Of a stretch of DNA of 64,000 bases, positions 11,874-29,176 are shown one piece after another. The notes under the pieces were generated by a model. It did not search any database, was not told the DNA's origin, and saw only the letters and a program-made list of their open reading frames with translations. The DNA comes from Promethearchaeia archaeon. Its GTDB lineage: Archaea; Asgardarchaeota; Lokiarchaeia; Sigyniarchaeales; SOKP01. The translations under genes and the position numbers were made by a program. The stretch spans positions 64,001 through 128,000 of the forward strand of contig JAHQWK010000008.1 of the NCBI GenBank assembly GCA_029856145.1, written 5' to 3'. The stretch's first letter is position 1; each line of letters starts with the position of its first letter.

Positions 11874-11933
11874 AAAAGTAAAAGGGTCAGTTCCCCAGCA
11901 AGTCCTTGAATAAAACGAGCGGGTGAGGTGAGT
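11874..11933 (+). repeat. Hairpin repeat copy A (left part only, truncated after the GAGGTGAGT loop)
   Basis: AAAAGTAAAAGGGTCAGTTCCCCAGCAAGTCCTTGAATAAAACGAGCGGGTGAGGTGAGT matches copies D-H. Confidence 0.9.
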
Positions 11934-11938
11934 TTCTC

Positions 11939-12160
11939 TTATTCCCATGCGGAATGATCTAAAATTGCGTTTGTTGGACACACATCTTGACACGCCATAC
12001 AATCAGTACACTCTCCAATATTCTCTGCTATGATTTTTCCATTAACTAATTTATAAACTTCTACAGGACACGCAATGATACAGTCCTCTGCACCAATGCA
12101 TCTGTCCAAGTCAATTTCAACCCAATGATCTTGATCTTCCCATTTTTTAATATTTACCAT
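11939..12160 (-). CDS. 2[4Fe-4S]-type ferredoxin
   Basis: CIGAEDCIIACP and CTDCMACQDVCP. Confidence 0.9.
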   Translation of the reverse strand: MVNIKKWEDQDHWVEIDLDRCIGAEDCIIACPVEVYKLVNGKIIAENIGECTDCMACQDVCPTNAILDHSAWE

Positions 12161-12293
12161 TTTTAGAATTCTCTTAGAATATTTAAGTTAAAATCAATTC
12201 ATTTTCTCTTTTTCTTCTTAAGGGTTGTTAAAATCTATTTAAATTTATAATTTATTCTTATTTTTCTAAAGCTTCTTTATTACCGTCGGAAAT

Positions 12294-13343
12294 CTAGTAT
12301 AAACGTAGAAAATTGAGAAATACTAATAAAAATCCTAATATAATGGTTAGTAAAAACAAATAAAAAGAATATACATTCCATTTATAGTGCCAAGTTCTTT
12401 TTTTGAGATCCCTCTTTCTTGATTTTTTGAAGCCAGTAATAGCTCCGGGTATGACAAGAATGATAGAAATTAAAGCTATTATACCATGAATAGTATAAAG
12501 TATGGCTCCTCTGTTTAAGAAGGTAGAGATAATCCAATATAAGAAAACACTTAAAGAAGTGAGAAAATAGCCAATACCAACGGTAATATGGAATTTCCTA
12601 TTTACAAATTTAGGAAGATCGTGAAAAAATTCAGTTACTGGAGACCTTTTTAATCCTGTCATAATAGCAACCCCTCCGAAAAGTAAAGAAATCGACAATA
12701 ACACAGCATGCCAAATCCAATCTGAGAAAGGTGTAATTGAAGCATCATCACTCCATCCTCGACTTTCCCAAAAACCTATATAATCATAATTTACAATCTC
12801 CATCCTAACGACCCATTTCACCCATTTATACCCTAGATGGTTTGGAGCAACAACTCTAACAGGAAATCCTTGTTCGACGGGAAGAACTTCACCATTCATT
12901 TCATATGCTAAAAGAACATTAGCCATACGTGCTTCTTCAATTGTCAAAGAGGAAGAATAATTATCTGCAGCATAAAAAACAACATCTATGGCCCCAGGTT
13001 TTACTTCCGCTAAATCTAGTAAATCCTTAACGGGAATTCCCTTCCATATTGCTGTAGCATATGGTCCATCAACACATTTTAGTGTAGCTAAAACCTCTTG
13101 TGAAGGTTGAGAAGTAAAGTTGGAATACGTAAAAGTCAAATTATTGTTGATATGTCCATTAATCGTTAATGTCCAATTATTTATCTCAATATGGGGAATT
13201 TCCCCCTTGCTTACTACAAAAAATTGATCATTAGGAGTAATAATAGCTCTACTAATTACGACTCCAGTCAATCCAATTAACGGAAGACATAACAAAATAA
13301 GAATTCCAATGTATTTTAAAAATATCTTTCTTTTTCTGTTCAT
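12294..13343 (-). CDS. Sulfite-oxidase-family molybdopterin oxidoreductase with C-terminal membrane domain
   Basis: TPNDQFF, Mo-ligand Cys in LKCVDG, LLAYEMNGEVLP..QGFPVR, GYKWVKW, GFWESRGW; about 4 C-terminal TM helices. Confidence 0.88.
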   Translation of the reverse strand: MNRKRKIFLKYIGILILLCLPLIGLTGVVISRAIITPNDQFFVVSKGEIPHIEINNWTLTINGHINNNLTFTYSNFTSQPSQEVLATLKCVDGPYATAIWKGIPVKDLLDLAEVKPGAIDVVFYAADNYSSSLTIEEARMANVLLAYEMNGEVLPVEQGFPVRVVAPNHLGYKWVKWVVRMEIVNYDYIGFWESRGWSDDASITPFSDWIWHAVLLSISLLFGGVAIMTGLKRSPVTEFFHDLPKFVNRKFHITVGIGYFLTSLSVFLYWIISTFLNRGAILYTIHGIIALISIILVIPGAITGFKKSRKRDLKKRTWHYKWNVYSFYLFLLTIILGFLLVFLNFLRLY

Positions 13344-13502
13344 AGAATATTCTTCAAATCTGAAATATATAATATTTTATAAGAGAATTAAAGAGTTATG
13401 ATAATCGCTTACAATTAAATCAATTAAGATTCCCTAATTTTAAAATTTCCTTGCTATAAATTATAAGATTCATATTTAAAATTATGTATTTTAAAAAAAA
13501 TG

Positions 13503-13543
13503 AAAAGGGTCAGTTAATGCGGTTTTTTTTAGTAAATAAGGAA
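13503..13543 (+). repeat. Collapsed hairpin-repeat remnant B (left-end and right-flank motifs only)
   Basis: AAAAGGGTCAGTT (13503-13515) and AGTAAATAAGGAA (13531-13543, as at the right flank of copy D) are separated by only 15 bp. Confidence 0.6.
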
Positions 13544-13604
13544 GATCTATAGTGAATTTTATTAAAATTAATACAATTAGATAATGAATAAAAATTAAAA
13601 AAAA

Positions 13605-15335
13605 TTATTTATATTTCTTATAAAATACGAGTCCTATTACTGCTATGGCTAGATATATTAGGTAATAATTACCGAAAGGAATTATATTCGGTTCTTCTTT
13701 AGCAATTCCAACTATTGCGAAAATACCCAAGTGATCTACACTGATTAGAACTTTTCCATCTCCAAGATCTATAAAATCTATTTTTTCCCACACTAAAGTA
13801 TCCATACTGAACCACCAAACTTCTATAGCCTTATATTTATTTACGTCGAAGTCAATGGTGATAGTTACAGGACCTTCCAAATTACTGGATTTGTTTATTA
13901 ATAAGTCAATGTACAGCAGACCATTTTTAAGGGATGCATATGTTGGATTATCAACCAACCCAGCAAAGAGTAAATGGGTAGCTTCAGAAACTGAAATCTC
14001 TACATTGATATCAAACTCTGTTGTACCATATGGGATGATGTTGAAATTATACCTTCCCTCGATTATTGTTGAATTTTTATAATATAAGAACCCCTGGTCA
14101 AAATTTGTTAAAGAAATACTATTATTCATGTATTTTATAATTCCATTTGGGAAATATTCTAAGTAATACACAATTTCTTGAGTTGATTTACGGATAATTT
14201 TTATCCAGTATTCACCATAAATTATCCTGTATTCTAAATCAAAATCCGGATCATACATTCTTATATTATCAAGCAGGTGATATAGATCAATACCCTTAGT
14301 TCCTTTTGGAACTAACAATGGCTGTCCACTCATGAAATATTCACCCGTCCTCATCAATAAATCTTCATTGGCAACAGCAATGGTAATATTTGAAGAGTCT
14401 AAAATCCAAGTTTCTGTTGGCCAATTCCATATAAAAATGTCTGCTCTGACTTCTTGAAATCCAGTTAATCCAAAATATGAGGATTTTGTAGAATTGATAA
14501 AGTCTATGATTTCTATTTTGTATTCCATTTTAAATAGGGATTTTCCCCCTGTATAAAAGATATCTCCAATATCTACGGCCCATTCAATGTCATCAAGAGG
14601 ATTAAAATCAAATATCCTAGTGAAATTAAGAGTAATACTATATGGAACCGTTCCTTGAATAGTAGTGTAAATTTCCCCAGTTTTTAATGTACCATTATTA
14701 TAATATTCTAATTTTACATATTCCCCGGATCCTGTACTGTTTTCAAGTAATATCGTATTAGGATCTGGAAATGATATGATTGGGGTTATATCGCCTCCTA
14801 AAAACATTATACAATCATCCTTCATTCTTTCAGCACACCATTGTATCATTAAACCATTGGTTCCATTTATTGGAATAAAAGGAGATGGGATTAGAGACAT
14901 GTAGGGATCAAATCCCAAGAAATCACCAACTCCCCCGTATGTAAAATTGACTAAAGAACAATTTACTATACCATAAGGCATTTCTTCTAATGAGTTGGTA
15001 GTTGTATTAAAAAATAAGTTTTTTAATTGGATTCCATAATAGTCGACACCAGTTCCTTTATAATTATTGAAATAAGTAATATCTGAGATATTATAGATAA
15101 CTCTAAATGGTCCAAAGAGAAGTTCAGTGCCATTATAATATCTAAGTTCCCAACCAACAACCGTACCCTCATCAAAATCCCAATAAATATTATCATTTGG
15201 AGGATCCAGAGGGGGATCGAAAGGTGTCGAAGCTACAGTATTTCTGATATTCAAATTTATCATTGAGAACAACAATATTAATGTAAATATTACTGACAAT
15301 ATTAAAACTCTATTTTTAACCATTTTGGATTTCAC
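13605..15335 (-). CDS. Secreted, C-terminally anchored cell-surface glycoprotein (Loki-CTERM-like tail)
   Basis: Signal peptide, many N-x-S/T sequons, C-terminus IPFGNYY + TM helix + KKYK. Confidence 0.75.
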   Translation of the reverse strand: MKSKMVKNRVLILSVIFTLILLFSMINLNIRNTVASTPFDPPLDPPNDNIYWDFDEGTVVGWELRYYNGTELLFGPFRVIYNISDITYFNNYKGTGVDYYGIQLKNLFFNTTTNSLEEMPYGIVNCSLVNFTYGGVGDFLGFDPYMSLIPSPFIPINGTNGLMIQWCAERMKDDCIMFLGGDITPIISFPDPNTILLENSTGSGEYVKLEYYNNGTLKTGEIYTTIQGTVPYSITLNFTRIFDFNPLDDIEWAVDIGDIFYTGGKSLFKMEYKIEIIDFINSTKSSYFGLTGFQEVRADIFIWNWPTETWILDSSNITIAVANEDLLMRTGEYFMSGQPLLVPKGTKGIDLYHLLDNIRMYDPDFDLEYRIIYGEYWIKIIRKSTQEIVYYLEYFPNGIIKYMNNSISLTNFDQGFLYYKNSTIIEGRYNFNIIPYGTTEFDINVEISVSEATHLLFAGLVDNPTYASLKNGLLYIDLLINKSSNLEGPVTITIDFDVNKYKAIEVWWFSMDTLVWEKIDFIDLGDGKVLISVDHLGIFAIVGIAKEEPNIIPFGNYYLIYLAIAVIGLVFYKKYK

Positions 15336-15500
15336 TAAATTTATTTATAAGGTATTAGGAATAATAGAATATTTAAATGTTTCTCACACCCCGAATTAAA
15401 TTGAATTTTTCATATTCCAGTAAGAAAACTGATTTCTGTTAAATTTGCTTAATTGGTACATTTTATAGTCTGAAAATTAGATTTAAATTTAACTGTTCCA

Positions 15501-15521
15501 GAAAAAGTAAAAGAGTCAGTT
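15501..15521 (+). repeat. Hairpin-repeat left-end remnant C
   Basis: GAAAAAGTAAAAGAGTCAGTT, one mismatch to the left end of copy A. Confidence 0.6.
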
Positions 15522-15613
15522 TATTATTTACAACAAATATTTATAGTTCGATATAAAAGGTCATCTTATTAATTTTGATGATCATAAAAAAAAAAAATAA
15601 AAAAAAATTGTAT

Positions 15614-15712
15614 CTAATAATATATTTTACCAACAAACGCTCTTTTAGCGTCAAACTGGGCCTTAACATTTTTGTAATATTCATAACCATTTTCCATTTT
15701 TTTTTCCACCAT
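15614..15712 (-). CDS. Possible 32-aa small ORF
   Basis: MVEKKMENGYEYYKNVKAQFDAKRAFVGKIYY*, downstream of repeated AAGTGTGTATTA boxes. Confidence 0.3.
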   Translation of the reverse strand: MVEKKMENGYEYYKNVKAQFDAKRAFVGKIYY

Positions 15713-15735
15713 TTTTTTTGTTTAATTTTTTTTTG

Positions 15736-15891
15736 AGTGTGTATAATTTTTTATTCTCTGATCATAAAGTGTGTATTATCATATTTAAATGTTGTGGATC
15801 GAAGTGTGTATTACAAATCACAGAAAATGTGAATATTGTGAAAAGCAATGTTTTAATTATGTTCTATTATCTTTTTTAAAAGTGTGTATTA
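15736..15891. promoter_or_regulatory. Direct-repeat boxes AAGTGTGTATTA (3 perfect, 1 partial)
   Basis: 15767-15778, 15802-15813, 15880-15891; partial AGTGTGTAT at 15736-15744. Confidence 0.55.
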
Positions 15892-16098
15892 TAAAAATGA
15901 ATTACACAAAAAAATTCTTAAAAAGTCTAATAATTGCTGATTTGATTCTTTGTTTCTTTAAAAACACTCAATATTATTTTTGATAAATTGACCTATTTAG
16001 GCATTTCTTATGAAATATAAAATTGCAGAAGAAGATCGAGAGAAAAAAAATAGAAAAGAGTCTATAAAAAAGACAATAAAACATTTGGTAGTTCAATA

Positions 16099-16216
16099 TA
16101 AAGGGTCAGTTCCCCGACAAGTCCTTTAATAGAATGAGTGGGTGAGGTGAGTATTCAAAGGAATAAATCAGGGAACTGGTGGTATAATTGTGTGTTCAGT
16201 TCAGTAAATAAGGAAA
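16099..16216 (+). repeat. Hairpin repeat copy D (full)
   Basis: AAAGGGTCAGTTCCCC...GGTGAGGTGAGTATTCAAAGGA...GGGAACTG...AATTGTGTGTTCAG. Confidence 0.95.
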
Positions 16217-16274
16217 ATATTGATATTTTCTTTGAATTATTGACTTTAAGAAATTAAGATTGAGAGAAGAAGCT

Positions 16275-17372
16275 TTAATATGATTTAAATTCCCATTTAT
16301 CTAAATGCATATACATCGACCTTAGAATACTTGTTGTGTATGGCTCTCCGGATATTTCTTTAATATCTAGGAAAGCTTTTGTTATGTGTTTACAGAACTT
16401 CATACTCTTCATTCTTTTATTTATATAATTAGGACAGTCATGCTTAATAATTCTATTTTTTAAATCAATAAGTAAATTGTAATCTTGTCTCGATCCTGCA
16501 ATAACACTAAAAATTGTTTCACTGTTTACCATACCCCGAGTTTTCAGTTTAACATTCTTAATTTTTCGATTTTCGCGATCTACGTCTAATCTCGAGAAAT
16601 ACGTGATTAAATCCTCAAAACATAATTCTTTTGAACTCATTAATTCAGGGATAGGCCATTTGTCAAAAAGCATGTGCCTTCCAGCGACTAAAATATTAAT
16701 CTCTCCTGCATTTATTTCTTTAAGTGCTCTTGATAGATCCCATACCGTGGACCCAACTGTGAACACATCATCTATTATTAATACATCTTTTTCTTGGAGA
16801 TCATTAACATCTATTTTGTGAACCCCTTGGATATCATTAAATCGTTCTTCTAGTGTTTTTCCTTTATTTTTTCCTGTATCTTTCAATTTAAATGTTTTTT
16901 CAATAATACTTTCTAAATTAAATCCCAATTTTTTCAATTTTTTTAAAAAGGGATTAACAAGGTAAATGCATTGATTTTTCTCGTCTCTATTATACTTAGG
17001 GGGTATCGTTATATATGCTGTATTTTCAAATAAATCAATATTTTGGGTAAAGATGTAGGATAACCCATCTGCTAACAGTTTTCCCGCATATTTTTTAAAT
17101 TTTTCTCCTTTTTTAAATTTTAAAAGAGAAATAAGTTCAGAAAGAATGTTAATCGGGATTTTATAATTACCAATTTCATAAGCATGATATATACCTAATG
17201 TTTTGACTTTGTTAAAATACCATTCCTTAACTATATCGGGTGGAAGTGAGCAATTCAAGCATAAATCTAGACCTTTTTCCACTTGATTCATACACTTTAA
17301 GCAGAAAGGTTCTTGAATTAATCTTATTGGAATTTTCCCCTCGAGATAATAGGTATCCTTAAGATTTGTCAT
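16275..17372 (-). CDS. ComF-family phosphoribosyltransferase-like protein with N-terminal Zn ribbon and C-terminal SWIM-like finger
   Basis: CLKC..CLNC; VLIIDDVFTVGSTV PRT motif; HDCPN...FCKHI; adjacent to dprA. Confidence 0.8.
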   Translation of the reverse strand: MTNLKDTYYLEGKIPIRLIQEPFCLKCMNQVEKGLDLCLNCSLPPDIVKEWYFNKVKTLGIYHAYEIGNYKIPINILSELISLLKFKKGEKFKKYAGKLLADGLSYIFTQNIDLFENTAYITIPPKYNRDEKNQCIYLVNPFLKKLKKLGFNLESIIEKTFKLKDTGKNKGKTLEERFNDIQGVHKIDVNDLQEKDVLIIDDVFTVGSTVWDLSRALKEINAGEINILVAGRHMLFDKWPIPELMSSKELCFEDLITYFSRLDVDRENRKIKNVKLKTRGMVNSETIFSVIAGSRQDYNLLIDLKNRIIKHDCPNYINKRMKSMKFCKHITKAFLDIKEISGEPYTTSILRSMYMHLDKWEFKSY

Positions 17373-17397
17373 TTATGTTTCAAGAAAAAGAAAGTTA

Positions 17398-18408
17398 CTA
17401 ATATTTAAAAAGATTAGTTTGAACAACTGAATCTTTTTCTTTAGATTTTATTTGCTCTCTTTCTTCATATTCGAATAAGAGCATTTCTGCTATATAATCA
17501 ACATCATTTACATTACTAATTTTAGCTCCCCCCTTCTCCTTGATGATTTTGTTAGGAACATAAGCTTGCTCACATTCTTCAATTGGTTCTACTGCGATTG
17601 CTGGTTTTCCTTGTTCATCCCCAAAGCGTAACTGCCATTGAGTTCCACTAAACTTGTTTCCTTCCACAACAATATTTCCTAACCCTAATCCGCTTGTAAT
17701 TCGGTTCCTTATCTGCAATGCGCGTTTAGTTACGCTTTTGTAAGGGAATCTTTCAGATATTAAAGCTCCATTTGTCACAAGTTCCTTCACTAGTCTTTGA
17801 TTTTCTTTAGGATAAAGATTTAATATTCCGGAGGCAATAACACCTATAGCTCTCCCCCCGTTTTCAAGAGCACTCTCTATTGCGATTGTGTCGATACCTC
17901 TTGCGAATCCGCTGACAACCGTAAATCCTAATTCTGAGAATCTTTTTGCTATTGATCTTGCCATTTCTTTTCCATATTTTGTTGGATTTCTGGAGCCAAT
18001 AATTGCAACTGCTTTAAAATCTTGAGGATTAATTTCACCTTTTATAAATATTAGTTTTGGAGGTTGCTTAAGGAATTTTAAAATGGGAGGGTATCCTGTA
18101 TCAAAATAACTGAAACATTTTATTTGATTACTTTCACAAATTCTTAAATCTTGTTCTATTCTGTTAAAAACCTTGTTACTTTTTCTTTTTCCGAATTTGG
18201 TTATTTTCTCATCAAGCCCTCTAATTTGGGCGTTAAAATTGGTTTTTAAGCTTAGAAGGAATGACTTAAACTTATTTTCAGAAAAAGAAACAATTTCATT
18301 AAAGGAAAAGTCGTTCTTCTTAATGATTTTCAGGACAGATAACGGGAGTGATACTTCTCTACTTAAAAAAATGTAATCAATTAAATTTGACTGTTCCAGA
18401 ATTATCAC
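17398..18408 (-). CDS. dprA: DNA-processing protein DprA/Smf
   Basis: YP..LK....PP.L, VAIIGSRN, VSGFARGIDT, RNRITSG motifs. Confidence 0.93.
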   Translation of the reverse strand: MIILEQSNLIDYIFLSREVSLPLSVLKIIKKNDFSFNEIVSFSENKFKSFLLSLKTNFNAQIRGLDEKITKFGKRKSNKVFNRIEQDLRICESNQIKCFSYFDTGYPPILKFLKQPPKLIFIKGEINPQDFKAVAIIGSRNPTKYGKEMARSIAKRFSELGFTVVSGFARGIDTIAIESALENGGRAIGVIASGILNLYPKENQRLVKELVTNGALISERFPYKSVTKRALQIRNRITSGLGLGNIVVEGNKFSGTQWQLRFGDEQGKPAIAVEPIEECEQAYVPNKIIKEKGGAKISNVNDVDYIAEMLLFEYEEREQIKSKEKDSVVQTNLFKY

Positions 18409-18646
18409 ACTATTTGGAAGCTAAAAATTGTATAAAACTATATACAGAGAGTAAGTTTTTTAATCTTCTTATTCATTAATGATTAATTTTCAATATAAGA
18501 TTAATCATTAATCTTTTTAAATTGTTTTTCTTTACCGAATCTTCTTTTTAATTTATACTTATAAAAATTAATTGAACAAAAAGCTTATCATTTTCTTTTA
18601 TACACATAGTTCCAGATATTATGTTGTATAATAAATTAGACAAGAG

Positions 18647-18758
18647 AAAAGTAAAAGGGTCAGTTCCCCGACAAGTCCTTTAATAGAATGAGTAGGTGAG
18701 GTGAGTATTCGAAGGAATGAATCAGGGAACTGATGGTAGAATTGTGTGTTCAGTAAAT
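18647..18758 (+). repeat. Hairpin repeat copy E (full)
   Basis: Near-identical to copies D and G. Confidence 0.95.
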
Positions 18759-18792
18759 GTGATTTTATTAGAAAAAATAAAAGTAAGATTTT

Positions 18793-18810
18793 TTACGCAT
18801 TGGCTAAATT
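18793..18810 (-). pseudogene. 3' stub (..LANA*) of the 88-aa gene at 21425-21691
   Basis: TTACGCATTGGCTAAAT and flank AGAAAAAATAAAAGTAAGATT match 21402-21440. Confidence 0.75.
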
Positions 18811-18819
18811 CTACATATA

Positions 18820-19878
18820 TTATTCTTTTGAAGATGGATAATCACACTTAGTAGTTGGTTTAGTTTTCAATGCCAAGCGTTCTCGTTTCCAATCTTCTAT
18901 TCCCACGACTTTAAGGTTTTTTAAGAGTTCAAGTCCCTCAAAATTTTCAACAGGATTATCCCATAAACTTAGTTCCCTTAAATTAACTAAATTCTCAACA
19001 TTTTGCGTCTGCATTATTTTATTGTTGCTTAAATCTAAGTCTTCTAATTTCCATAACGAATCTAACCCCTCAATCTCAGAAATTTTGTTTTGTGCTAAGC
19101 TCAATCGCTTTAAATTTAGCAGACTTTCCAATCCTTTTATCTTAGAAATTTCATTTGCATCCAAATACAAATATTCCAAATTCTTAAGACTTTCTAGACC
19201 TTGTATTTCTTTAATTTTATTAGCACCAAGAATTAATTCTTTTAAATTACGTAAATTCTCAAGACCTTTTATCTTAGAAATTTCATTTCTATCTAAATAC
19301 AGATATTCTAAGTTCCTGAGACTCTCTAAACCTTCTAGTTCTTTAATTTTATTAGAACTGAGAATTAATTTCTTCAAATTATTTAAATTCTCAAGACCTT
19401 TGATTTCTGTAATATTATTCTCGTGAATGTTTAAAATCTCTAATTTTCTGAGCTCCTCCAGCCCTTTTATCTCAGTAATTTCATTTTGAGTGAGAATTAA
19501 CTTTTTTAAGCTAATTAAAGTGCCAAGCCCTTCTATATTTTTGATGGGATTACCATGATAATTAGCATCTCCAAAGTATAAACCTTCTAATTTCCTAAGG
19601 TTCGCTATTCCTTCAACCTTGGTAACGTAGTTCCCACTTATGTTTAAGAATTTTAGGTCTGTAAGATTCTCAAGATTCTCAAGTTTATCAATAATATTTC
19701 CCATAAGATACAATACTTCTAAATTATTCAATGTATCCAACCCCTCAACCTCAGAAAGACTACACGGAATAGTTATAAGCTCTAACTTATTATTATGAGC
19801 AAAATATTTTTTTCCTCGAATAATAGCATACTCTTCAGAATTTTTATCTGCCATCTCCAAGATATTTTTACGAAACAT
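18820..19878 (-). CDS. SDS22-like leucine-rich repeat protein, tandem copy 1
   Basis: About 12 22-aa repeats LxxLxxLxLxxNxIxxIxGL. Confidence 0.95.
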   Translation of the reverse strand: MFRKNILEMADKNSEEYAIIRGKKYFAHNNKLELITIPCSLSEVEGLDTLNNLEVLYLMGNIIDKLENLENLTDLKFLNISGNYVTKVEGIANLRKLEGLYFGDANYHGNPIKNIEGLGTLISLKKLILTQNEITEIKGLEELRKLEILNIHENNITEIKGLENLNNLKKLILSSNKIKELEGLESLRNLEYLYLDRNEISKIKGLENLRNLKELILGANKIKEIQGLESLKNLEYLYLDANEISKIKGLESLLNLKRLSLAQNKISEIEGLDSLWKLEDLDLSNNKIMQTQNVENLVNLRELSLWDNPVENFEGLELLKNLKVVGIEDWKRERLALKTKPTTKCDYPSSKE

Positions 19879-19958
19879 ACCTATATATATTTATGGGCAG
19901 TGATAACTATGAGAGTTCCATAAAAATAAAGAAATTAATTATTTCTAATATTCTTTAA

Positions 19959-20063
19959 AAAAGTAAAGGGTCAGTTCCCCGAAAAGTCCTTGAATAAAAC
20001 GAGTGGATGAGGTGAGTATTCAACGGAAAGGCGCAGGGAACTGGTGATAGAATTGTGTGTTCA
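19959..20063 (+). repeat. Hairpin repeat copy F (full, most diverged)
   Basis: TCAGTTCCCC..TCCTTGAATA..TATTCAACGGA..GGGAACTG..AATTGTGTGTTCA. Confidence 0.95.
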
Positions 20064-20108
20064 TGTTATCAAATTTAATTTTACTAGAAAAAATAAAAGT
20101 AAGATTAC

Positions 20109-20126
20109 TTACGCATTAGCTAAATT
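20109..20126 (-). pseudogene. 3' stub (..LANA*) of the 88-aa gene
   Basis: TTACGCATTAGCTAAAT directly abutting the LRR copy 2 stop codon. Confidence 0.75.
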
Positions 20127-21194
20127 TTACGTATAATATTCTTTTGAAGATGGATAATCACACTTAGTAGTTGGTTTAGTTTTCAATGCCAAACGCTCTC
20201 GTTTCCAATCTTCTATTCCCACGAATCGAAGATTTTTCAAGGAATTAAGCCCTCCAAACTCTTCAATAGGATTTTTCTCTAAAGTGATTACTTCTAAATT
20301 TGCTAAATTCTCAAGACCTTGAATTTGGGTTATGTTGTTCTCATCTAGCGCTAGACTTTCTAACTTCCATAACGAATCTAACCCCTCAATCTCAGAAATC
20401 TTGTTTTGTGTTAAACTCAATCGCTTCAAATTTAGTAGACCTTCCAACCCTTTTATCTTAGAAATTTGATTTCGTTCTAATTCTAAATGCTGCAAATTCC
20501 TGAGGTTATTTAAACCTTTGATTTCTTTAATTTTATTAGATTCAAGAACTAATTGTTTTAGATTGCTTAATTTATCAAGACCTTTGATCTCTGAAATTTT
20601 ATTCATGCCTAAATCTAATAATTCCAATTTTTTAAGGTTATCTAAACCTTTTATTTCCCTAATTTCATTAAGACCGAGATATAATTCTCTCAAATTGCTT
20701 AGTTTATCAAGACCTTTAATTTCTGTTATTTTATTTTGATCTAATTGTAAGATCTCTAAATTTCTAAGGTATTCTAACCCCTTTATCTCAAATATTTCAT
20801 TTTGAAAGAAAGAAAGCTTCTTTAAGTTGGTTAACGTGTTTAATCCTTTAATTTCTGAAATGGGATTGCCATGATTATTACCGTCTCCAAACCATAAAGT
20901 CTCTAGATTCGTTAAATTTTCTAAACCTTCGATATCAGTAATATAATTTCCACTTAAAATCAAAAGCTTTAAGTTCGTGAGGGCCTTTAGATTTTCAAGT
21001 CTCTCAATGCTATTAGTATTGAGAACCAATGTTCTTAAATTTTCTAAATTCTCGAGGCCTTCAATTTCAGAAAGACTACATGTGACATCAATGAGCTCTA
21101 ATACATTATCACAAATAAAATGTTTCTTTCCACGAATAAGAACATATTCCTCAGAATTTTTGTCTGCCATCTCTAAGATATTTTTACGAAGCAC
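20127..21194 (-). CDS. SDS22-like leucine-rich repeat protein, tandem copy 2
   Basis: Same architecture as copy 1; termini nearly identical. Confidence 0.95.
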   Translation of the reverse strand: MLRKNILEMADKNSEEYVLIRGKKHFICDNVLELIDVTCSLSEIEGLENLENLRTLVLNTNSIERLENLKALTNLKLLILSGNYITDIEGLENLTNLETLWFGDGNNHGNPISEIKGLNTLTNLKKLSFFQNEIFEIKGLEYLRNLEILQLDQNKITEIKGLDKLSNLRELYLGLNEIREIKGLDNLKKLELLDLGMNKISEIKGLDKLSNLKQLVLESNKIKEIKGLNNLRNLQHLELERNQISKIKGLEGLLNLKRLSLTQNKISEIEGLDSLWKLESLALDENNITQIQGLENLANLEVITLEKNPIEEFGGLNSLKNLRFVGIEDWKRERLALKTKPTTKCDYPSSKEYYT

Positions 21195-21274
21195 ACCTAT
21201 ATATATTTATGGGCAGTGATAACTATGAGAATTCCATAAAAATAAGGAAATTAATCATTTCTAATATTCTTTTA

Positions 21275-21387
21275 AAAAGTAGAAGGTCAGTTCCCCGACA
21301 AGTCCTTTAATAGAATGAGTGGGTGAGGTGAGTATTCAAAGGAATGAATCAGGGAACTGATGATAGAATTGTGTGTTCAGCTCAGTA
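21275..21387 (+). repeat. Hairpin repeat copy G (full; hairpin 21287-21360)
   Basis: TCAGTTCCC/GGGAACTGA outer stem, TCCTTTAATA/TATTCAAAGGA inner stem. Confidence 0.95.
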
Positions 21388-21424
21388 ATTTTGAATTTAC
21401 CAGAAAAAATAAAAGTAAGATTAC

Positions 21425-21691
21425 TTACGCATTAGCCAAATATTCGTTTAGCACGATGTTTAATTCTACTTCTGAGTTTTGGATCTTCTTCAACAGATTC
21501 CTCAGTCCATACTCATTTAATAGTAGCTCGATGAGATTCTTATAAACTGCGGTAATATTATCTTTACCAGCTTCATAATAAAATTTATCATCACTAAGGG
21601 TAAGATCTAAAAGATCATATAAACCTTTCAAGGCGTCCTTTATATTTTCAAAATTCCTTACTGCTTTTTCTTTCGTTTTTGAACTATTCAT
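21425..21691 (-). CDS. Hypothetical 88-aa helical protein (anchor gene of the left array)
   Basis: Clean ORF with strong SD (GAGGTGA); diverged copies of its tail conserve the amino acids. Confidence 0.85.
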   Translation of the reverse strand: MNSSKTKEKAVRNFENIKDALKGLYDLLDLTLSDDKFYYEAGKDNITAVYKNLIELLLNEYGLRNLLKKIQNSEVELNIVLNEYLANA

Positions 21692-21964
21692 TTAACTTAC
21701 TCACCTCAATATTATTATGTAAATGATCATATATAAAGATGATCATTATGCATAATTTTTCCGTCGTAGAACATATATCAGTATAGTGGGATTGATCACC
21801 CCTCGTCGATCTCAATTATATTTTTTTTACTAATTTAATCATTGAAGGAAATCTCAATTATAATGATGTCAATATACATTAATTTCGATAGCGAAGATTG
21901 ATCATTAATAACGAAAATCATTAATTGATATTGATTTTTGATTGAAAAACAAAATTAAAAAAAA

Positions 21965-22361: not shown

Positions 22362-23339
22362 ATGAAAATAAAAATAAGAACAGCAAAATATAAACATAGT
22401 GGAGAACCTTTACAATTTAAAAAAATTGATATAGAATGTAAAGGCGCAGGAGTAAAAGAGGATCCATTTATATTGGATTCTTCTTCAGATATCCCTAATG
22501 ATTTTGAAATATTAGAATCTAAAGTACACATAATTATAAAAAATTGTCATGTTAACTCTTTAGTGTTAGGATATTCTAAGAACATCACTATAAAAGAGTG
22601 TTCTTTTAGAGCTGTATTTTTATACCATTGTGCTGATATAACAATAAATAAATGTCATATTAATTTTATGACTCTCAATGTATGTCGAAATTGCTTATTA
22701 AAGAATTCAAAATTCGATACAGAATTCAAGATATTTAAATGTTATAACAACACATTTAAAGCATGTGAATGGGATATATTTTTTGATTCAAATGACTTAA
22801 GTAGAGGAAATATCCTTGAAAGTATTGATGATCCTTTTATTGAAGATATCTTAGAAATACAAAAACCTTTAGTAAAAACAACAGATTCGTTTGCTATTTC
22901 AACATCTACTTTTTGGCATGGCGTTATTTTAAAAGATATCGAATGTCAAGGAACTGGAACAGTAAAGGATCCCATTATAATTGATAATTCAAATGTAAAA
23001 AAAATTGACCTAAAAGATATTGTAATATACCATAATAGACATCATGTTATCTTTAGAAACTTAACATTAAAAAAAATAAAGATATATGACAGTAAACATG
23101 TGACACTTGAAGGTTGTGATATTTCAAAGTCAATTCATCTAAAATTTTGTTCAGATATTAAAATTAGATCAATTTCAATGAAATTATTAAAATTTGGTGC
23201 ATGTCAAGATACATTCGTAGAAAACTCTGAAATTAAAGAACTTGATATATATAAAGGATATGAAGGATTTGTAAATTTAAGTAAATGTACTTTTAATAAA
23301 ACAAACGAAAACACTATTAAACATATCATATTTTCTTAG
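22362..23339 (+). CDS. Parallel beta-helix (NosD/pectin-lyase-like) protein with two GxGTxxDPxII modules
   Basis: ECKGAGVKEDPFIL and ECQGTGTVKDPIII, each followed by xxIxxC beta-helix turns. Confidence 0.7.
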   Translation: MKIKIRTAKYKHSGEPLQFKKIDIECKGAGVKEDPFILDSSSDIPNDFEILESKVHIIIKNCHVNSLVLGYSKNITIKECSFRAVFLYHCADITINKCHINFMTLNVCRNCLLKNSKFDTEFKIFKCYNNTFKACEWDIFFDSNDLSRGNILESIDDPFIEDILEIQKPLVKTTDSFAISTSTFWHGVILKDIECQGTGTVKDPIIIDNSNVKKIDLKDIVIYHNRHHVIFRNLTLKKIKIYDSKHVTLEGCDISKSIHLKFCSDIKIRSISMKLLKFGACQDTFVENSEIKELDIYKGYEGFVNLSKCTFNKTNENTIKHIIFS

Positions 23340-23364
23340 AGAGATACAAAGGTTCATTTTTTTT

Positions 23365-23619
23365 TTAAATCTTAGCTACTATTTCCGAATCTCTTTTTTT
23401 CAATTTTTCACTGACAATTTCTATATAGTATAAAAATAAACGTCCAGTTAAATTAATGATAAATGAGGAAATTGTTAGATAACTTAGATTATTAGCTCCT
23501 CTGCCTTCCCCTCTAATACCGATAAAATTAAAGTTCCAATCATATAAAACATCACTGTTATTAGCTTCTATTATAATAATAATTGATATAGTTGTAAGAA
23601 TTATACAAGAAAGTGATGC
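23365..23619 (-). pseudogene. Start-less 3' stub of a membrane protein
   Basis: 84 open codons ASLSCIILTTISIIIII...GIRGEGRGANNLSYLTISSFIINLTG...KKRDSEIVAKI*, no ATG. Confidence 0.4.
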
Positions 23620-23706
23620 CTAGTTAATCAAAAATAATATTTTCGTCAAGGAAAAATTACAATATCTAAATATAATGCTAAATATTTTAATTTCAAAACA
23701 AGAGAC

Positions 23707-25017
23707 GTGTCTACCAAATTGAACGGCACTTCCGCGGTCATGATGAACTTACCGATTTCTGTGCTCCAATATGTCCCCTGGTTCTGTGACTTCTCTAATT
23801 CTCCGATGGGCGCAAAGCCCGAAACCTTCGGAGAATGGTTCTGGAAACCGCTGGTCGCTCTAGCGAAAGCAATTGTCGGCGTCTTTGTCACCATAGTAAT
23901 GGCTATCGTAGAACTTGTAAAGTTGATCATCGATTTCTTTATCCAAATTTTCATGGACATCTTACCAATTCTAGGATATATACTATGGCTAATAATTCGC
24001 ACATTAATATTAATTTTCATTTGGATAATGTTTGTATTTACACTTTTAACAATATTAATTTTGTTGGTATCAACAATCGGATTAGGTCTTATCTTAGATA
24101 TATTTATGAATCTTGATATTAAGACTTCTTCAAATAGCGTAATTATAAGTGGTGATCTTTATTTATCCTTCAATTACAATATAGCTATAGAATATAATGA
24201 TTTTCTTTGTTTTTATATCCCTTCAATTAAGGCTTATCTTAATACTACTGATTTTGTTCTTGAATATTCTTTTAATTTTGGCTCAACAGATTTAAATATT
24301 ATAGAATTTAACAACTCACTGTTTGATGATTTATCTGAAAGTGGGCCAAATCAATCTTCAGAATCACTTCCAAAAATAAGTGGTATTTCATCGGTATTTA
24401 GCAATGGATTTGAATTTCTCTCTGGTTTAGGTTTTACAATGTCAGCGCTAGGAATACTTGTTGGTTTACAAGCAGGTATTTTAGCATTTAACTCAAATGA
24501 TCTTTATAACAACATAATATTTATCGTAGGAATTGCTTTATTCATAGCCAGTGTAATATTATTAGTTATTAAAATTTTGATTGATCCAGAAGAATTTTCA
24601 CAATGGATGCTTTGGGGTATGGGAGTAGGATGTATTATTTCTGCAATTAGGTTTTTCAAAACGAAAGATTACATTGATGATACCTTTCAATATAAAGCTT
24701 GGCATAGAAAAAAAGCCGGAGATAAAGATTTCTTTTCTATGCTCAAAAATATAAAGCTCATATGTGGTGGTGTTGGGTTTGGTTTAAGTATTGCAGAAAT
24801 GTTTGGTGATTGGGATGATAATGAAATATATAAGGTATGTTCAGCAATATTTTCGGTAATAGCAGGTTGTTTATCTCTAAAACTTGCAAATCATGCTTTG
24901 ATTATGTTAAAGGGGAAAAATAGAACTTACAAAACTAGAATTGCAGGTATTTATGGAGGAGGAAGTCTTATCCTAGCAGCAATCCTCTTTTCAATTGCGG
25001 CATGGAGTAATAATTAA
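23707..25017 (+). CDS. Multi-TM membrane protein, probably the 5'-truncated C-terminal part of a larger protein
   Basis: No convincing start or SD; GC-rich 5' segment; many hydrophobic Gly-rich helices. Confidence 0.55.
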   Translation: MSTKLNGTSAVMMNLPISVLQYVPWFCDFSNSPMGAKPETFGEWFWKPLVALAKAIVGVFVTIVMAIVELVKLIIDFFIQIFMDILPILGYILWLIIRTLILIFIWIMFVFTLLTILILLVSTIGLGLILDIFMNLDIKTSSNSVIISGDLYLSFNYNIAIEYNDFLCFYIPSIKAYLNTTDFVLEYSFNFGSTDLNIIEFNNSLFDDLSESGPNQSSESLPKISGISSVFSNGFEFLSGLGFTMSALGILVGLQAGILAFNSNDLYNNIIFIVGIALFIASVILLVIKILIDPEEFSQWMLWGMGVGCIISAIRFFKTKDYIDDTFQYKAWHRKKAGDKDFFSMLKNIKLICGGVGFGLSIAEMFGDWDDNEIYKVCSAIFSVIAGCLSLKLANHALIMLKGKNRTYKTRIAGIYGGGSLILAAILFSIAAWSNN

Positions 25018-25144
25018 AAATAAATTTATAACAAATTTTTTTTTATAATATTATAGAAATTGCATTATTAGAACTTAATTAACAGGACATAATATTTATA
25101 AATTATAAAATAATCATCCAAATAGTTTTAAAGTAAAGTGGAGT

Positions 25145-25783
25145 TTGATGGAGGAAAAATTTAAAAACTTCCTTGAGGAGGATGAAAAAATTTTATGGAT
25201 ACGAAAACAAAAAAAGAATTTATTGTTGATTATACCATTTGGTATTAAAGTAGGAATAATTTCTTCTTTCATTTTCTTAATTTTAATTTTGATAACAATA
25301 ATCTTAGAAACGATTTTAGGGATTGTAATTATTATATCAATTTTTGTGATTATAATTTGGTGGATAATCTTGTACATCAACCATCATATTAATAGAATGA
25401 AAAAAATATTACAATTATCTTCAAATGAATTAAGACAATATGATTTTATTGAAATTATTACGAGTAAGCGCTATATTCGGAAGAGTTATTTATTAAATTA
25501 TTTTAAAGATTTTTTAAAATATCCTAAAAATGTAATAGAACAAATTGGCGACATCGTATTTATAAAGCTAGATTTTATTGAAAAAGTTATTGTGGAATAT
25601 AAGTTTAGAAGGATAGGGTTATTTCTAAAAGGCTATAAACCAAAATTTTTTAATGATACAGATTTTTTCATAGAATTTACTGAAAACGACTTTGATGAGC
25701 TTTTAAAAATATTAATAAATACTCTAAATTTGGAAAAGAAAGAATCAAATCCCATTTTTGAGGAATATTTCAAAAAAAAGTAA
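25145..25783 (+). CDS. Hypothetical 2-TM membrane protein
   Basis: LEEDEKILW N-terminus, two TM helices, IITSKRYI motif typical of bPH-like domains. Confidence 0.65.
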   Translation: MMEEKFKNFLEEDEKILWIRKQKKNLLLIIPFGIKVGIISSFIFLILILITIILETILGIVIIISIFVIIIWWIILYINHHINRMKKILQLSSNELRQYDFIEIITSKRYIRKSYLLNYFKDFLKYPKNVIEQIGDIVFIKLDFIEKVIVEYKFRRIGLFLKGYKPKFFNDTDFFIEFTENDFDELLKILINTLNLEKKESNPIFEEYFKKK

Positions 25784-25787
25784 TATG

Positions 25788-26027
25788 TTATTGATTTGAA
25801 TAAGCTTCTTTTAATCCAATATATTTATTCCAGGAGTTAAAGAAAGCATGCATATATATATAAGAATTAATGAGTTCAATTACATAGGATTTTCCTTCAT
25901 CCGTTATTTCTATCGCATATCTTGGTCTAAAACGTTTATCCTTAAAATTTAATTTTTGTAGGATAAAAATATGACCACATTTATCACACAAATCAGGCAA
26001 ATGACAAAAGGGATTTAGCTGTTTCAA
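25788..26027 (-). pseudogene. Probable 3' gene fragment (PadR/wHTH-like end)
   Basis: R..Y.IEITDEGK motif, no credible 5' part. Confidence 0.3.
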
Positions 26028-26244
26028 AATATCAAATGAATTTACAAGAGCTCCATGGCACAGGATATTATAGTTCTAAACGAAATAGTTAATAGAAAAT
26101 TCAATACAGATTAGGAGGTAACTAAAATGTTTAAAAGAAATAAAGGATTTAGGATCTCTGAATTTCTTATCCAAAATATTACTATTAATAAAATTATTCA
26201 AAATTTGCTTAACGACAATAACTAGATCCATAGAACATATTATT

Positions 26245-26925
26245 ATGAAATTTACAATTTATAGGAATTATAATTTTGGAAGATTGCTCTTAACTGAGGA
26301 TATTGATATAGAATGTGAAGGAGAAGGGACAGAGGAAGATCCACTTATAATTATACCCTCAGAGAAAATCCCTACAAATTTCTTTCTAAAAAACTCCAAA
26401 ATTCGAGTAATTTTAAAAAATTTTAATACACACAATATCAGTTTAATTTCTTGTTTGAATGTAACGATTGAAAAATGTAAATTAAATAAATTTTTTATAT
26501 TAGAAAGTCATGACATTGAAATTAAAAGTACATCCTGTCATTATTTAAAAATATTAAAATCCTCGTATATTAATATTGAAAATTCCTTTTTTGAGAGGGT
26601 AAAAGTGAAGAATTCAATAAATAAAATATTATTAAGAGATTGTACTATTAATCGAATTAAAAGAAACCATTTTAATAATATTCAATTTGATAAATGTAAA
26701 ATTTTAAATCCATATTCGTTTAAATCAATAAATTTTCTATTAAAAGACAATAAAAGAGCAATACTTATAGTTGCAGTTATTACTATTATTATAATAGTAG
26801 GAGTAATTTTAGCACTATATAACTTTGTATTATTATTAATATTTATCCCAGTTTTAATATTCATTAAATGGTATTTTAGTTTTAAGGAAGAAAGAGAAGT
26901 GAGAAAAAGAAAAAAGTTAGAATAA
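26245..26925 (+). CDS. Beta-helix protein paralogous to 22362-23339, with C-terminal TM hairpin
   Basis: DIECEGEGTEEDPLII, beta-helix turns, 2 TM helices. Confidence 0.7.
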   Translation: MKFTIYRNYNFGRLLLTEDIDIECEGEGTEEDPLIIIPSEKIPTNFFLKNSKIRVILKNFNTHNISLISCLNVTIEKCKLNKFFILESHDIEIKSTSCHYLKILKSSYINIENSFFERVKVKNSINKILLRDCTINRIKRNHFNNIQFDKCKILNPYSFKSINFLLKDNKRAILIVAVITIIIIVGVILALYNFVLLLIFIPVLIFIKWYFSFKEEREVRKRKKLE

Positions 26926-26979
26926 TATATATTGTAAGAAAAAATTCATTAATGTAACTTTAAATATTCTTAATTATAG

Positions 26980-27090: not shown

Positions 27091-27194
27091 TGTAGAAAAT
27101 TATATTTTTAATTTTTAATTCTTTATTATATAAAGAATCCGAAAATATACGCAAAGGTAAATTAATAAATGGAGCTACTCCACGAGTTTATAAA

Positions 27195-27528
27195 TTAACC
27201 AATTTAGAATTACGGAAAGATAATTTACTAGATCAAGATTTTTGATTGTAAATAAAAGATAAGATATAAAAAAAGAAATATTATTATTAGTTTAATGATG
27301 AATAGGGCGTCCTTTCTTATGGATAGATTTACCTACTACAGCTTCACTACCTTCGAGTACCATTTCTGAAATTGTAGGGTGGCTATGGATGGTCTCTCCA
27401 ATATCATGAATGGTTAACCCATGTTGCATTGCTAGTGCTATTTCAGCTATCAATTCGGGGGCTTCAGTTCCAATACAGGAAGCACCGAGAATTTTATGTG
27501 TAGTTTTATCAGCAAGAACCATAAAGAA
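27195..27528 (-). pseudogene. lpdA 3' stub 1 (last 78 codons) plus about 95 bp of downstream flank
   Basis: FFMVLADKTTHKILGASCIG...HSHPTISE...GRPIHH*; flank shared with stub 2. Confidence 0.92.
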
Positions 27529-27695
27529 CAAATATCAGATTTCAAAATTCAAGGCCTTCAAACTTTTCAATAGGATTTGAAATCAAATTTCCCCTTAAAT
27601 TTAGTCTTTTTAAATTTATATTTGAATCAACGCTTTTATCTTTGAAATCTCATTTCAATTATATTAACAATTAATATGATAAAAAAGAAAAAAAG

Positions 27696-28244
27696 TTAAA
27701 AATTTATTACTTCCGGATTGCTTTTAAAGAATTTTTTAAAAGATTTTCCATTCGTAACATACATTCCAGAAAGTTTTTCTCCAATTAATTTTCTTGATTC
27801 GGGTAATTTCTTTTTAATAGCAGCAGGTATACCTACTGCCAAAGATCTACGTGGAAGTTCTTGATTTATTAAAACAGCTCCAGCAGCAATTTGAGATCCT
27901 TCTTCAACTTTAGTTCTATGTAAAACATTAGATCCAATGCCTATTACACACCCATTTTCTATTGTACAAGGGCCGTGTATCATTGCATGGTGTCCTATTA
28001 TACAATTATCGCCAATGTCAACAAAAGAACCTACCTCCATATGAATAGTAACATTTTCTTGAATGCTGGTGTTTTTTCCAATTTTAATAGGACCGAAATC
28101 TCCACGTAAAACTACTCCAAACCAAATATTACTTCCCTCGTCAATTGAGACATCTCCAACTATTACAGCAGTAGGAGCAATATAAACAGATTCATGTATT
28201 TGGGGTTTTTTTCCTGTTCTCGGACTTGCCATAATTATTGGCAA
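27696..28244 (-). CDS. Gamma-carbonic-anhydrase-family hexapeptide-repeat protein
   Basis: IWFGVVLRGD, IQENVTIH, IGHHAMIHG. Confidence 0.9.
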   Translation of the reverse strand: MPIIMASPRTGKKPQIHESVYIAPTAVIVGDVSIDEGSNIWFGVVLRGDFGPIKIGKNTSIQENVTIHMEVGSFVDIGDNCIIGHHAMIHGPCTIENGCVIGIGSNVLHRTKVEEGSQIAAGAVLINQELPRRSLAVGIPAAIKKKLPESRKLIGEKLSGMYVTNGKSFKKFFKSNPEVINF

Positions 28245-28330
28245 AATTAATCACCTTAAACAATTTACTAAATTATTAAAAATTAGAACGCTCTTTTATT
28301 GATAAAAATACGTAGTGATATTTAACATTA

Positions 28331-28620
28331 TTGTCAAAGGTCAACAATATTAATCAGAAAGATTTTCCTGCAAACACTACATTTATCTCTAACGGAACAA
28401 TTAATGTAGATTTATGGAATAATGCCTTAGAGGGATTAATAACTATTGTCTTCTATGCAAATGATACATCAGGGAATATTGGATCTGCATCCGTTCTTAT
28501 AACAAAGAAGATTCCCTCTAAAGCAATAATTCTAGGATAAAACACATTTTGGATGATTGGAGCGATTTTTGGAGGGGTGTAGCTCTGATAAGAAAGTTTA
28601 AAGAAAAAGCAAAAAATTAA
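28331..28620 (+). pseudogene. Decayed C-terminal stub of an Ig-like/Loki-CTERM surface protein
   Basis: ITIVFYANDTSGNIG followed by AIILG* (degenerate IPGY), a broken TM helix and a basic tail. Confidence 0.6.
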
Positions 28621-28654
28621 TCTTTCTTAAATATAATTTGAAATAATAAGAAAT

Positions 28655-28989
28655 ATACCAATTTAGGATTACAGAAAGGTAAATTACTAGATCAAGATTT
28701 TAGATTGAGCACAAAAGATAAGATATGAAAAAAGAAATATTATTTTTAGTTTATTGATGAATAGGACGTCCTTTTTTGTGTATAGCTTTTCCTACAACCG
28801 ATTCTGCTGCTTCAAGTACCATCTCCGAAATGGTCGGATGAGAGTGAATTGTCTCTGCAATGTCATGTATCGTTAACCCATGTTGCATTGCTAATGCTAT
28901 TTCAGCTATCAATTCGGGGGCTTCAGTTCCAATACAAGATGCTCCTAAGATTTTATGGGAGCTTTTATCAGCTAAAATCATTAAGAAAC
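28655..28989 (-). pseudogene. lpdA 3' stub 2 (last 78 codons) plus about 95 bp of downstream flank
   Basis: FLMILADKSSHKILGASCIG...HSHPTISE...GRPIHQ*. Confidence 0.92.
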
Positions 28990-29019
28990 GTTCTTAATGA
29001 ATATTTAGCAAATGCGTAA
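28990..29019 (+). pseudogene. 3' stub VLNEYLANA* of the 88-aa gene, inverted orientation
   Basis: GTT CTT AAT GAA TAT TTA GCA AAT GCG TAA; amino-acid identical, synonymous differences only. Confidence 0.85.
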
Positions 29020-29072
29020 GAATCCTTTTTTCTGATTTTACATTTTCTCTTAAATTTAATTTAATGCCCTAA

Positions 29073-29176
29073 ACTGAACACACAATTCTATCATCAGTTC
29101 CCTGATTCATTCCTTTGAATACTCACCTCACACACTCATTTTATTCAAGGGTTTGCCGGGGAACTGACCCTTTTAC
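29073..29176 (-). repeat. Hairpin repeat copy H (full, inverted)
   Basis: Reverse complement of copies D-G; its left-end motif overlaps the TAA of the 78-aa gene. Confidence 0.95.

Follow-up and report, generated by a model that had tools for sequence, protein, structure and literature searches.

We questioned whether a ~115-nt hairpin repeat that recurs in a 64,000-nt stretch of a Promethearchaeota genome (the window, meaning the whole stretch analysed) is a recombination site, the end of a mobile element or a structured RNA. The window holds five full copies, one 3' half copy and two short 3' remnants, all eight of which are present where the original prediction had placed them, and each full copy does lie directly 3' of a gene or gene stub. 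The conserved gene F2 and the copies are as follows:

21425-21691, minus strand: F2, conserved gene for an 88-aa all-helical protein, with the element downstream of it in every element-bearing genome
21268-21383, minus strand: EL1, the master copy, beginning 41 nt past the F2 stop codon, with the loop 11-mer at 21324-21334
19952-20067, minus strand: EL2, internal full copy 3' of LRR gene 2, with the final F2 codons ahead of it (to 20128)
18641-18756, minus strand: EL3, internal full copy 3' of LRR gene 1, with the final F2 codons ahead of it (to 18809)
16087-16202, minus strand: EL4, internal full copy 3' of the ShosA/ShosT-like pair, in which homology begins at the element itself
15489-15521, minus strand: short 3'-terminal remnant, with weaker support than the remnant at 13483-13515
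13483-13515, minus strand: short 3'-terminal remnant (3' arm end and U tract), 3' of the 576-aa gene
11868-11979, minus strand: distal 3' half copy (loop, 3' arms and U tract), with real homology at 11873-11933
29071-29186, plus strand: full copy in inverted orientation, following an inverted remnant of the final ~13 F2 codons (28980-29039)

Within the window the full copies are 84-95% identical and score 111-121 bits in a covariance model, and the 8-mer of the outer stem occurs 11 times compared to 0.67 expected. The remnant at 13503 is real because its 12-mer, present six times in the genome, always falls in an element copy, while the remnant at 15501 is weaker because its 12-mer is also present at two unrelated loci. 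The distal half copy has kept its original flank beside the bordering gene F6, and its upstream side overlaps the end of a ferredoxin gene. The repeat had been described as dispersed, which proved wrong: a whole-genome search confined the family to one 18-kb stretch of the 3.55-Mb genome, and each of 27 genomes has a single syntenic element locus.

The hairpin is built from a lower stem of 11-13 bp, a variable internal loop and an upper stem of ~10 bp with one bulge; its apex is a pyrimidine-rich loop, and its 3' end is a U-rich tail. The structured strand is the minus strand of the window, because one-sided changes give U-G or U-A pairs on that strand and C.A mismatches on the plus strand. 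Fold z-scores ranged from -3.7 to -4.9 on the minus strand compared to -0.6 to -2.3 on the plus strand. The claim that variation among the copies preserves the structure was borne out in that pairing is kept, and the bulge shift described for the copy at 19959 was correct, but the structure had been read on the wrong strand and true covariation within the hairpin is modest. Double changes were found at seven hairpin pairs compared to 2.5 ± 1.4 in shuffles, with the stems being mostly invariant.

The hairpin structure of the copy alignment was supplied by hand; RNAalifold did not recover the hairpin from a first MAFFT alignment of the copies because the rows were misaligned and degenerate. Among 20 F2-adjacent copies compared across species, the stems and loop core were 0.79-0.93 identical, while the internal loops and flanks of the same copies were 0.35-0.56 identical and F2 third codon positions 0.60. 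Judged from these alignments, conservation of the stems and loop core far exceeds that of neutral sites. The good preservation of the internal full copies may indicate that they are functional instead of scars. The original prediction had warned of a match to a known Rfam family; none was found in a permissive search of Rfam 15 at E values up to 1, and ARAGORN detected no tRNA or tmRNA at the element. H/ACA, C/D-box and K-turn readings were dropped because the internal loops vary between species and there are no conserved box motifs.

The element was found in 24 of the 54 genomes of the genus, at 1-4 copies each (six in this genome) and nearly always on one contig, and also in three genomes of a sister genus, which are exactly those with a close F2 orthologue. 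At least 60 copies are known in total. Beside the element, the F2 homologues of these 24 and three genomes are 88-92 aa long, and F2 paralogues at ≤63% identity lack the element. Pattern scans of IMG/VR for attP returned no element-bearing viral contigs, and the metagenome matches to the element were all chromosomal F2 loci. Pfam, PADLOC, ESM Atlas, a PDB profile search and AlphaFold with Foldseek gave nothing usable on the function of F2, whose AlphaFold model has a mean pLDDT of 72. The PDB profile search did match F2 to a PUF protein (E = 0.009), which we regard as a lead only.

The loop core, UACUCACCUCA, is the perfect 11-nt complement of the ribosome-binding motif of F2, a target encoded ~375 nt upstream on the same strand:

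21698-21708, minus strand: F2 leader motif UGAGGUGAGUA, 6 nt ahead of the ATG and the sole occurrence of the 11-mer in the genome outside the element

The 11-mer occurs six times in the 3.55 Mb, namely in five element loops and, in complementary orientation, in the F2 leader. The leader motif is invariant at 15 loci and absent from other genes. Positions 1-10 of loop and leader are paired in all 29 distinct F2-element pairs, which include three G-U intermediates and two independent compensatory changes in few lineages (G-C to A-U at position 2 and U-A to C-G at position 10). The minimum-energy fold of a 468-nt model of the F2 mRNA includes this long-range helix; a second helix predicted in this genome, which joins the region of the F2 start codon to the internal loop of the hairpin, was dropped because it is not conserved. 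Element loops matched the leaders of their own cargo genes no better than chance. Taken together, the strand-specific tolerance of G-U pairs, the conserved stems and loop core, and the ribosome-binding-site pairing with compensatory changes support the structured ncRNA or 3' UTR alternative of the original prediction. A U tract directly follows the F2 stop codon ahead of the hairpin and could end the mRNA there. Alternatively, the 11-bp inverted repeat flanking F2 could represent two DNA sites for one protein, since compensatory changes in an inverted repeat alone cannot tell RNA pairing from paired DNA sites.

Small RNAs of the RNAIII/RsaE type in Staphylococcus aureus bind Shine-Dalgarno regions through a C/U-rich seed in a hairpin loop. 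The element likewise has a stable stem topped by a pyrimidine-rich loop that is the complement of a purine-rich ribosome-binding site, although its single perfect target in the genome is encoded ~375 nt upstream of it, on its own strand, and any separate promoter is hypothetical. Base pairing between the 5' and 3' UTRs masks the Shine-Dalgarno region of the icaR mRNA in S. aureus (PMC3868564) and of the hbs mRNA in Bacillus subtilis (PMC5737220). Similar to these mRNAs, F2 has a pyrimidine-rich, anti-Shine-Dalgarno-like motif past its coding region that is complementary to its own ribosome-binding region, with a long-range mRNA helix being predicted, and the complementarity has been kept by compensatory change, as expected of an icaR-like anti-RBS motif. 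In contrast with icaR and hbs, the host is an archaeon, the motif occupies the loop of a hairpin that is long and conserved and whose co-transcription with F2 and effect are putative, the complementarity runs 4 nt past the generic Shine-Dalgarno core, and the element is also duplicated along a cassette array.

At 16 loci, F1 and F2 come first, followed by an element, by variable cargo interspersed with internal copies, by a further element that is often just the 3' half, and lastly by the convergent F6. In the window, the remaining features of this arrangement are:

29517-30998, minus strand: F1, lpdA-like oxidoreductase, conserved gene upstream of F2
11939-21194, minus strand: cargo modules, from the master to the distal copy
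20127-21194, minus strand: cargo, LRR2
18820-19878, minus strand: cargo, LRR1
17398-18408, minus strand: cargo, ShosA
16275-17372, minus strand: cargo, ShosT-like PRTase
13605-15335, minus strand: cargo, 576-aa hypothetical protein
12294-13343, minus strand: cargo, Mo-oxidoreductase
11939-12160, minus strand: cargo, ferredoxin
11555-11824, plus strand: F6, conserved gene for a Cys-rich protein of 89 aa, which runs convergent to the element and bounds the hotspot on its far side

The two LRR modules form a tandem duplication of 1316 bp, with the element lying within the duplicated unit. Across loci, the cargo includes ShosTA, pAgo, TIR, SIR2-TPR and LRR genes, several of them anti-virus. Empty sites, in which a single element lies between F2 and F6, were found on five contigs, while at occupied sites each cargo module terminates in a full or 5'-truncated element copy. 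The repeat units share a common 3' boundary just past the U tract, but their 5' boundaries fall at six places, ranging from 13 codons within F2 to the final 20 nt. Direct repeats of the 3' part of the F2 unit flank the inserted DNA, as at the att sites of integrative islands of the tRNA-gene type. The distal copy retains the flank found in empty sites, and distal copies are decayed, in contrast with F2-adjacent copies. The 3' end of F1 is also duplicated (27292-27531 and 28751-28981), without any hairpin.

This arrangement resembles tandem islands at the 3' ends of tRNA and tmRNA genes, which likewise have a full proximal copy, 3'-anchored partial direct repeats after each block, a single copy in empty sites and a displaced distal copy that decays. 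It differs from them in that the target is the end of a protein gene plus a hairpin instead of a tRNA, the modules are only 1-4 kb long, and no integrase was found in the islands examined or anywhere in this genome.

With moderate confidence, we consider the element to be a regulatory 3' RNA hairpin of F2 whose extra copies arose as a by-product when cassettes inserted next to it, at the 3' end of F2. The hairpin would belong to the F2 transcription unit, read from the minus strand as a 3' UTR or else as a small RNA closely linked to F2. Its loop core would pair with UGAGGUGAGUA, located at the 5' end of the F2 mRNA or close to it, and so control the translation of F2 or the stability of its mRNA, acting in cis through a 5'-3' fold-back or in trans. 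The F2-hairpin unit would also have an insertion hotspot for gene cassettes at its 3' end, and the extra copies would not be independent genes. Each insertion would duplicate a 3'-anchored piece of the unit, as happens when islands integrate into the end of a tRNA gene on its 3' side, and under this proposal every cargo module would therefore end in a full or 5'-truncated copy. Recombination could occur via an unrecognised recombinase acting in trans or by homologous, Campbell-type integration of circles.

The 97%-complete genome contained no match to PF00589 (tyrosine recombinase), PF00239 (serine recombinase) or PF01797 (Y1 transposase). In five relatives, integrase genes with PF00589 matches were all located on contigs other than that of the element. 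None of the 25 Pfam families listed for 84 cargo proteins, each with more than one member, is an integrase or transposase family, and no integrase or transposase was detected when twenty larger cargo proteins were scanned singly. None of the islands examined yielded a recombinase or mobile-element gene.

The original prediction had pointed to integron integrases and HUH transposases (REP/IS200) as enzymes that recognise such hairpins. An integron attC site is not supported because no IntI was found, the sequence is conserved besides the structure, and neither strand of the five full copies has the core sites R'' (RYYYAAC) and R' (GTTRRRY) at the feet of the hairpin, apart from one off-position match in copy 2. 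A REP/RAYT or IS200/IS605 hairpin end was rejected given the lack of a PF01797 match and the presence of the copies at one locus, and a MITE because there is one syntenic locus per genome (27 genomes) and conserved flanks reach past the stem; the element itself shows neither terminal inverted repeats nor target duplications. The observation as a whole was confirmed, and the interpretation first given to it is partly supported.

Chromosomal integrons have cargo rich in defence genes. The defence-rich cargo here, the co-oriented arrays with a copy at the end of each module, the empty and filled sites, the precise 3' boundary common to all repeats and the good preservation of internal copies would all fit a hairpin that is itself an integron-attC-like or structured att site, at which an unrecognised recombinase acting in trans stacks cassettes and RNA pairing is secondary or coincidental. 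We nevertheless consider this unlikely: no tyrosine or serine recombinase or Y1 enzyme was found in this genome or in the relatives' islands, attC core sites are missing from a repeat that is conserved in sequence, unlike attC, the 5' boundaries fall at six different places, the F1 3' end was duplicated likewise without a hairpin, and the loop-leader covariation would need a separate explanation. Archaeal integrons with attC cassette arrays have been described (PMC9668308), and the present arrays share with them their co-orientation, an imperfect hairpin of ~60-120 nt at the end of each module and cargo of the defence type. Apart from lacking R''/R' sites and IntI, they differ from integron arrays in that the repeat, conserved in sequence besides structure, is 5'-truncated to varying extents and is part of the 3' end of a resident gene. 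A more speculative reading, which we consider unlikely, is that in Loki-type Asgard archaea the F2-hairpin unit anchors integrase-less or unrecognised-recombinase cassette capture, a functional analogue of a chromosomal integron for defence stacking in which each cassette would add a copy of an anti-F2-RBS RNA, coupling array content to F2 level.

It is rather improbable that the element is a mere terminator or insulator, a hairpin plus U tract copied with its neighbours by unequal crossing-over and tandem duplication. The U-rich tail does follow a hairpin 3' of same-strand genes, the 1316-bp LRR duplication takes in the element, and the U tract is all that the shortest remnants retain. However, oligo-U suffices for archaeal termination and F2 already has a U tract ahead of the hairpin; a terminator would leave unexplained why the loop core is invariant and uniquely complementary to the leader of F2, as well as the compensatory changes, and unequal crossing-over does not account for empty sites or for unrelated cargo between copies. 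Finally, although a nested set with variable 5' ends and a common 3' end at the terminator is the pattern of retrocopies, we give very little credence to 5'-truncated cDNA copies of an F2-hairpin transcript, or to a MITE/REP-type mobile repeat, since the copies are confined to a single locus in the genome, where nearly all share one orientation and each coincides exactly with the boundary of a cargo module, and since they show no terminal inverted repeats or target duplications of their own and no Y1 transposase was found.

Almost nothing is known about RNA-based regulation and accessory-gene gain in Asgard archaea. This locus provides a concrete, testable RNA-RNA interaction, a predicted 11-bp helix with natural compensatory variants, at a genus-wide hotspot that swaps defence genes (ShosTA, pAgo, TIR, SIR2-TPR and LRR). 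Since no recombinase is recognisable, it also raises the question of how the cassettes move, and the repeat can be used as a marker to find such cassettes in metagenomes.

Repeat searching, pattern counting and alignment recovered the copies of the hairpin element that the original prediction had listed, with agreeing coordinates: five are full, one is a half copy and two are short matches to the left end. The 8-mer of the outer stem occurred 11 times versus 0.67 expected by pattern count. The element had also been described as dispersed, but when the entire genome (3.55 Mb) was searched, its copies were confined to one 18-kb stretch, so they are clustered. The element had no match in Rfam, no tRNA or tmRNA was detected at it, and the element was found on no virus contig.

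A covariance model of the element, made from homologues gathered in relatives, detected it in 24 of 54 genomes of the genus, at 1-4 copies each (6 in this genome) and nearly always on a single contig, and in 3 genomes of a sister genus. These three are exactly the ones there with a close orthologue (88-92 aa) of F2, the 88-aa gene at 21425-21691 (minus strand) that directly precedes the master copy of the element (21268-21383); distant F2 paralogues, common across the family, have no element 3' of them. The small helical proteins to which F2 belongs form a multi-copy family, present in 117 of the 134 genomes of the host's family and absent from the other searched families of the same order. 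F2 had no Pfam or fold match, and a PDB profile search gave a candidate match to a PUF-repeat protein (E = 0.009). The sole 16S rRNA match in this genome is a 5' fragment broken off at a contig end (contig C20, 147429-148119), which stops short of the anti-SD sequence.

Both strands of the element are foldable, the minus strand better (z of -3.7 to -4.9 versus -0.6 to -2.3 for the plus strand). The stems were almost invariant across 41 copies, and their changes were mainly one-sided, giving U-G or U-A pairs on the window's minus strand and C.A mismatches if the plus strand is read. Double compensatory changes within the hairpin were scarce (7 pairs versus 2.5 in shuffles), and the upper stem was preserved through bulge and register shifts, as had been predicted. 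Among 20 F2-following copies from different species, identity was 0.79-0.93 in the stems and loop core, versus 0.35-0.56 in the internal loops, remaining loop and flanks and 0.60 at F2 third codon positions. Since the stems and loop core are more alike than all of these, the element is under selection, and its conservation pattern is what one sees in structured RNAs whose loop is sequence-specific.

A search with the loop 10-mer gave a single additional match, which is complementary to the loop and lies on the F2 strand, 6-7 nt ahead of the F2 start codon; the 11-mer occurred six times genome-wide, in five element loops and the F2 leader. This leader motif was unchanged in 15 species, lies ~20 nt past a TATA-like box and is not in the leaders of F1 (the lpdA-like oxidoreductase gene), F6 (the convergent Cys-rich 89-aa gene) or the LRR genes, nor did any element copy match the leader of its own cargo gene. 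Helix positions 1-10 were paired in all 29 distinct F2-element pairs, with G-U in 3 of them and compensatory changes from G-C to A-U in one clade and from U-A to C-G in one genome, and modelling of the 468-nt mRNA gave a minimum-energy fold that contains this long-range helix. The original suggestion of a structured ncRNA or 3' UTR element is thus supported by selection and loop-leader pairing, with covariation inside the hairpin being modest. The leader motif resembles the consensus of eukaryotic 5' splice sites, as the loop does the U1 snRNA 5' end; since no intron is in evidence, the likeness is very probably coincidental and due to an extended SD/anti-SD pair.

Mapping the ORFs at 16 loci revealed one syntenic site, in the order F1, F2, element, variable cargo with extra copies, a final copy, convergent F6 and an Hdr-like cluster. 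On 5 contigs the site is empty: one element copy stands between F2 and F6, all inside ~200 nt. Cargo varies by species, with abundant defence-type genes (ShosA and a ShosT-like PRTase in the window; short pAgo, TIR, Ank-TIR, SIR2-TPR and LRR proteins) alongside odd metabolic genes:

16275-18408, minus strand: ShosTA-like two-gene module, element copies on both sides
18820-21194, minus strand: two tandem LRR genes (352 and 355 aa) made of 66-nt (22-aa) repeats
L058 10442-13149 (G045), L059 4759-15634 (G023), L068 7383-8633 (G047): cargo of relatives at the same hotspot

The DprA-like protein of the two-gene module is a PADLOC ShosA match (E = 1e-56) and its PRTase-domain protein a weak ShosT/PsyrT match (E = 4e-7); the module is a predicted ShosTA-like defence or toxin-antitoxin pair in an Asgard genome. 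The LRR genes are a 1316-bp tandem duplication, which takes in the element as well as the initial portion of the coding sequence. The three loci of relatives have as cargo, among others, a short pAgo (PADLOC E = 6e-63) and its 435-aa partner, as well as 1010-aa TIR, 1449-aa lectin-domain, SIR2-TPR and Ank-TIR proteins.

When the master region was compared with the window by BLAST, all copies shared a 3' end directly past the U tract, and their 5' starts differed, lying 13, 6 or 5 codons within F2, or else at the element or its loop. Two remnants retain just the last ~20 nt of the element, and behind each LRR gene the sequence reads as the final four codons of F2 plus its stop. F2-adjacent copies scored 86-116 bits; the F6-adjacent copy is frequently the 3' part only, with a mutated loop. 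In two species, proximal copies were 95-96% identical between species, as were distal ones, versus 65-69% between proximal and distal; because each is orthologous yet so unlike the other, the distal copy decays. The flank of the distal copy is that of the empty sites, and cargo comes after the master copy. As with tRNA-gene islands, the boundary pattern is the one that successive insertions into a gene's 3' end leave behind.

The 3' end of F1 is duplicated likewise, its last 76-79 codons occurring three times in 27192-29716, separated by cargo genes:

29517-30998, minus strand: intact F1
28751-28981: orphan F1 3' end
27292-27531: orphan F1 3' end

This is a putative second 3'-end stacking hotspot, and its lack of a hairpin speaks against the hairpin being the recombination signal itself. 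The stretch that separates F2 from the F1 orphans (22362-26925, plus strand) contains 4 genes without assigned function, one with weak beta-helix matches.

No match to tyrosine recombinase (PF00589), serine recombinase (PF00239) or Y1 transposase (PF01797) domains was found in the 97%-complete genome, an absence that may reflect an assembly gap. Integrase or transposase families were lacking among those listed for 84 cargo proteins and in 20 cargo proteins scanned one by one; in five relatives, integrase genes lie on contigs other than the element's. Five relatives each have a Xer-like gene of 311-315 aa. The proposed recognition of the hairpin by HUH (REP/IS200) transposases found no backing, given the missing PF01797 match, and neither did the integron attC proposal, as core sites are absent from the element and PF00589 had no match in the genome.

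The most likely role of the hairpin is that of a regulatory RNA element for F2, with a loop that would mask the F2 ribosome-binding region (21698-21708, minus strand) through a proposed pairing comparable to the 5'-3' UTR pairing of icaR (PMC3868564). The extra element copies, in turn, would most likely have arisen as a by-product when cassettes inserted at the 3' end of F2.
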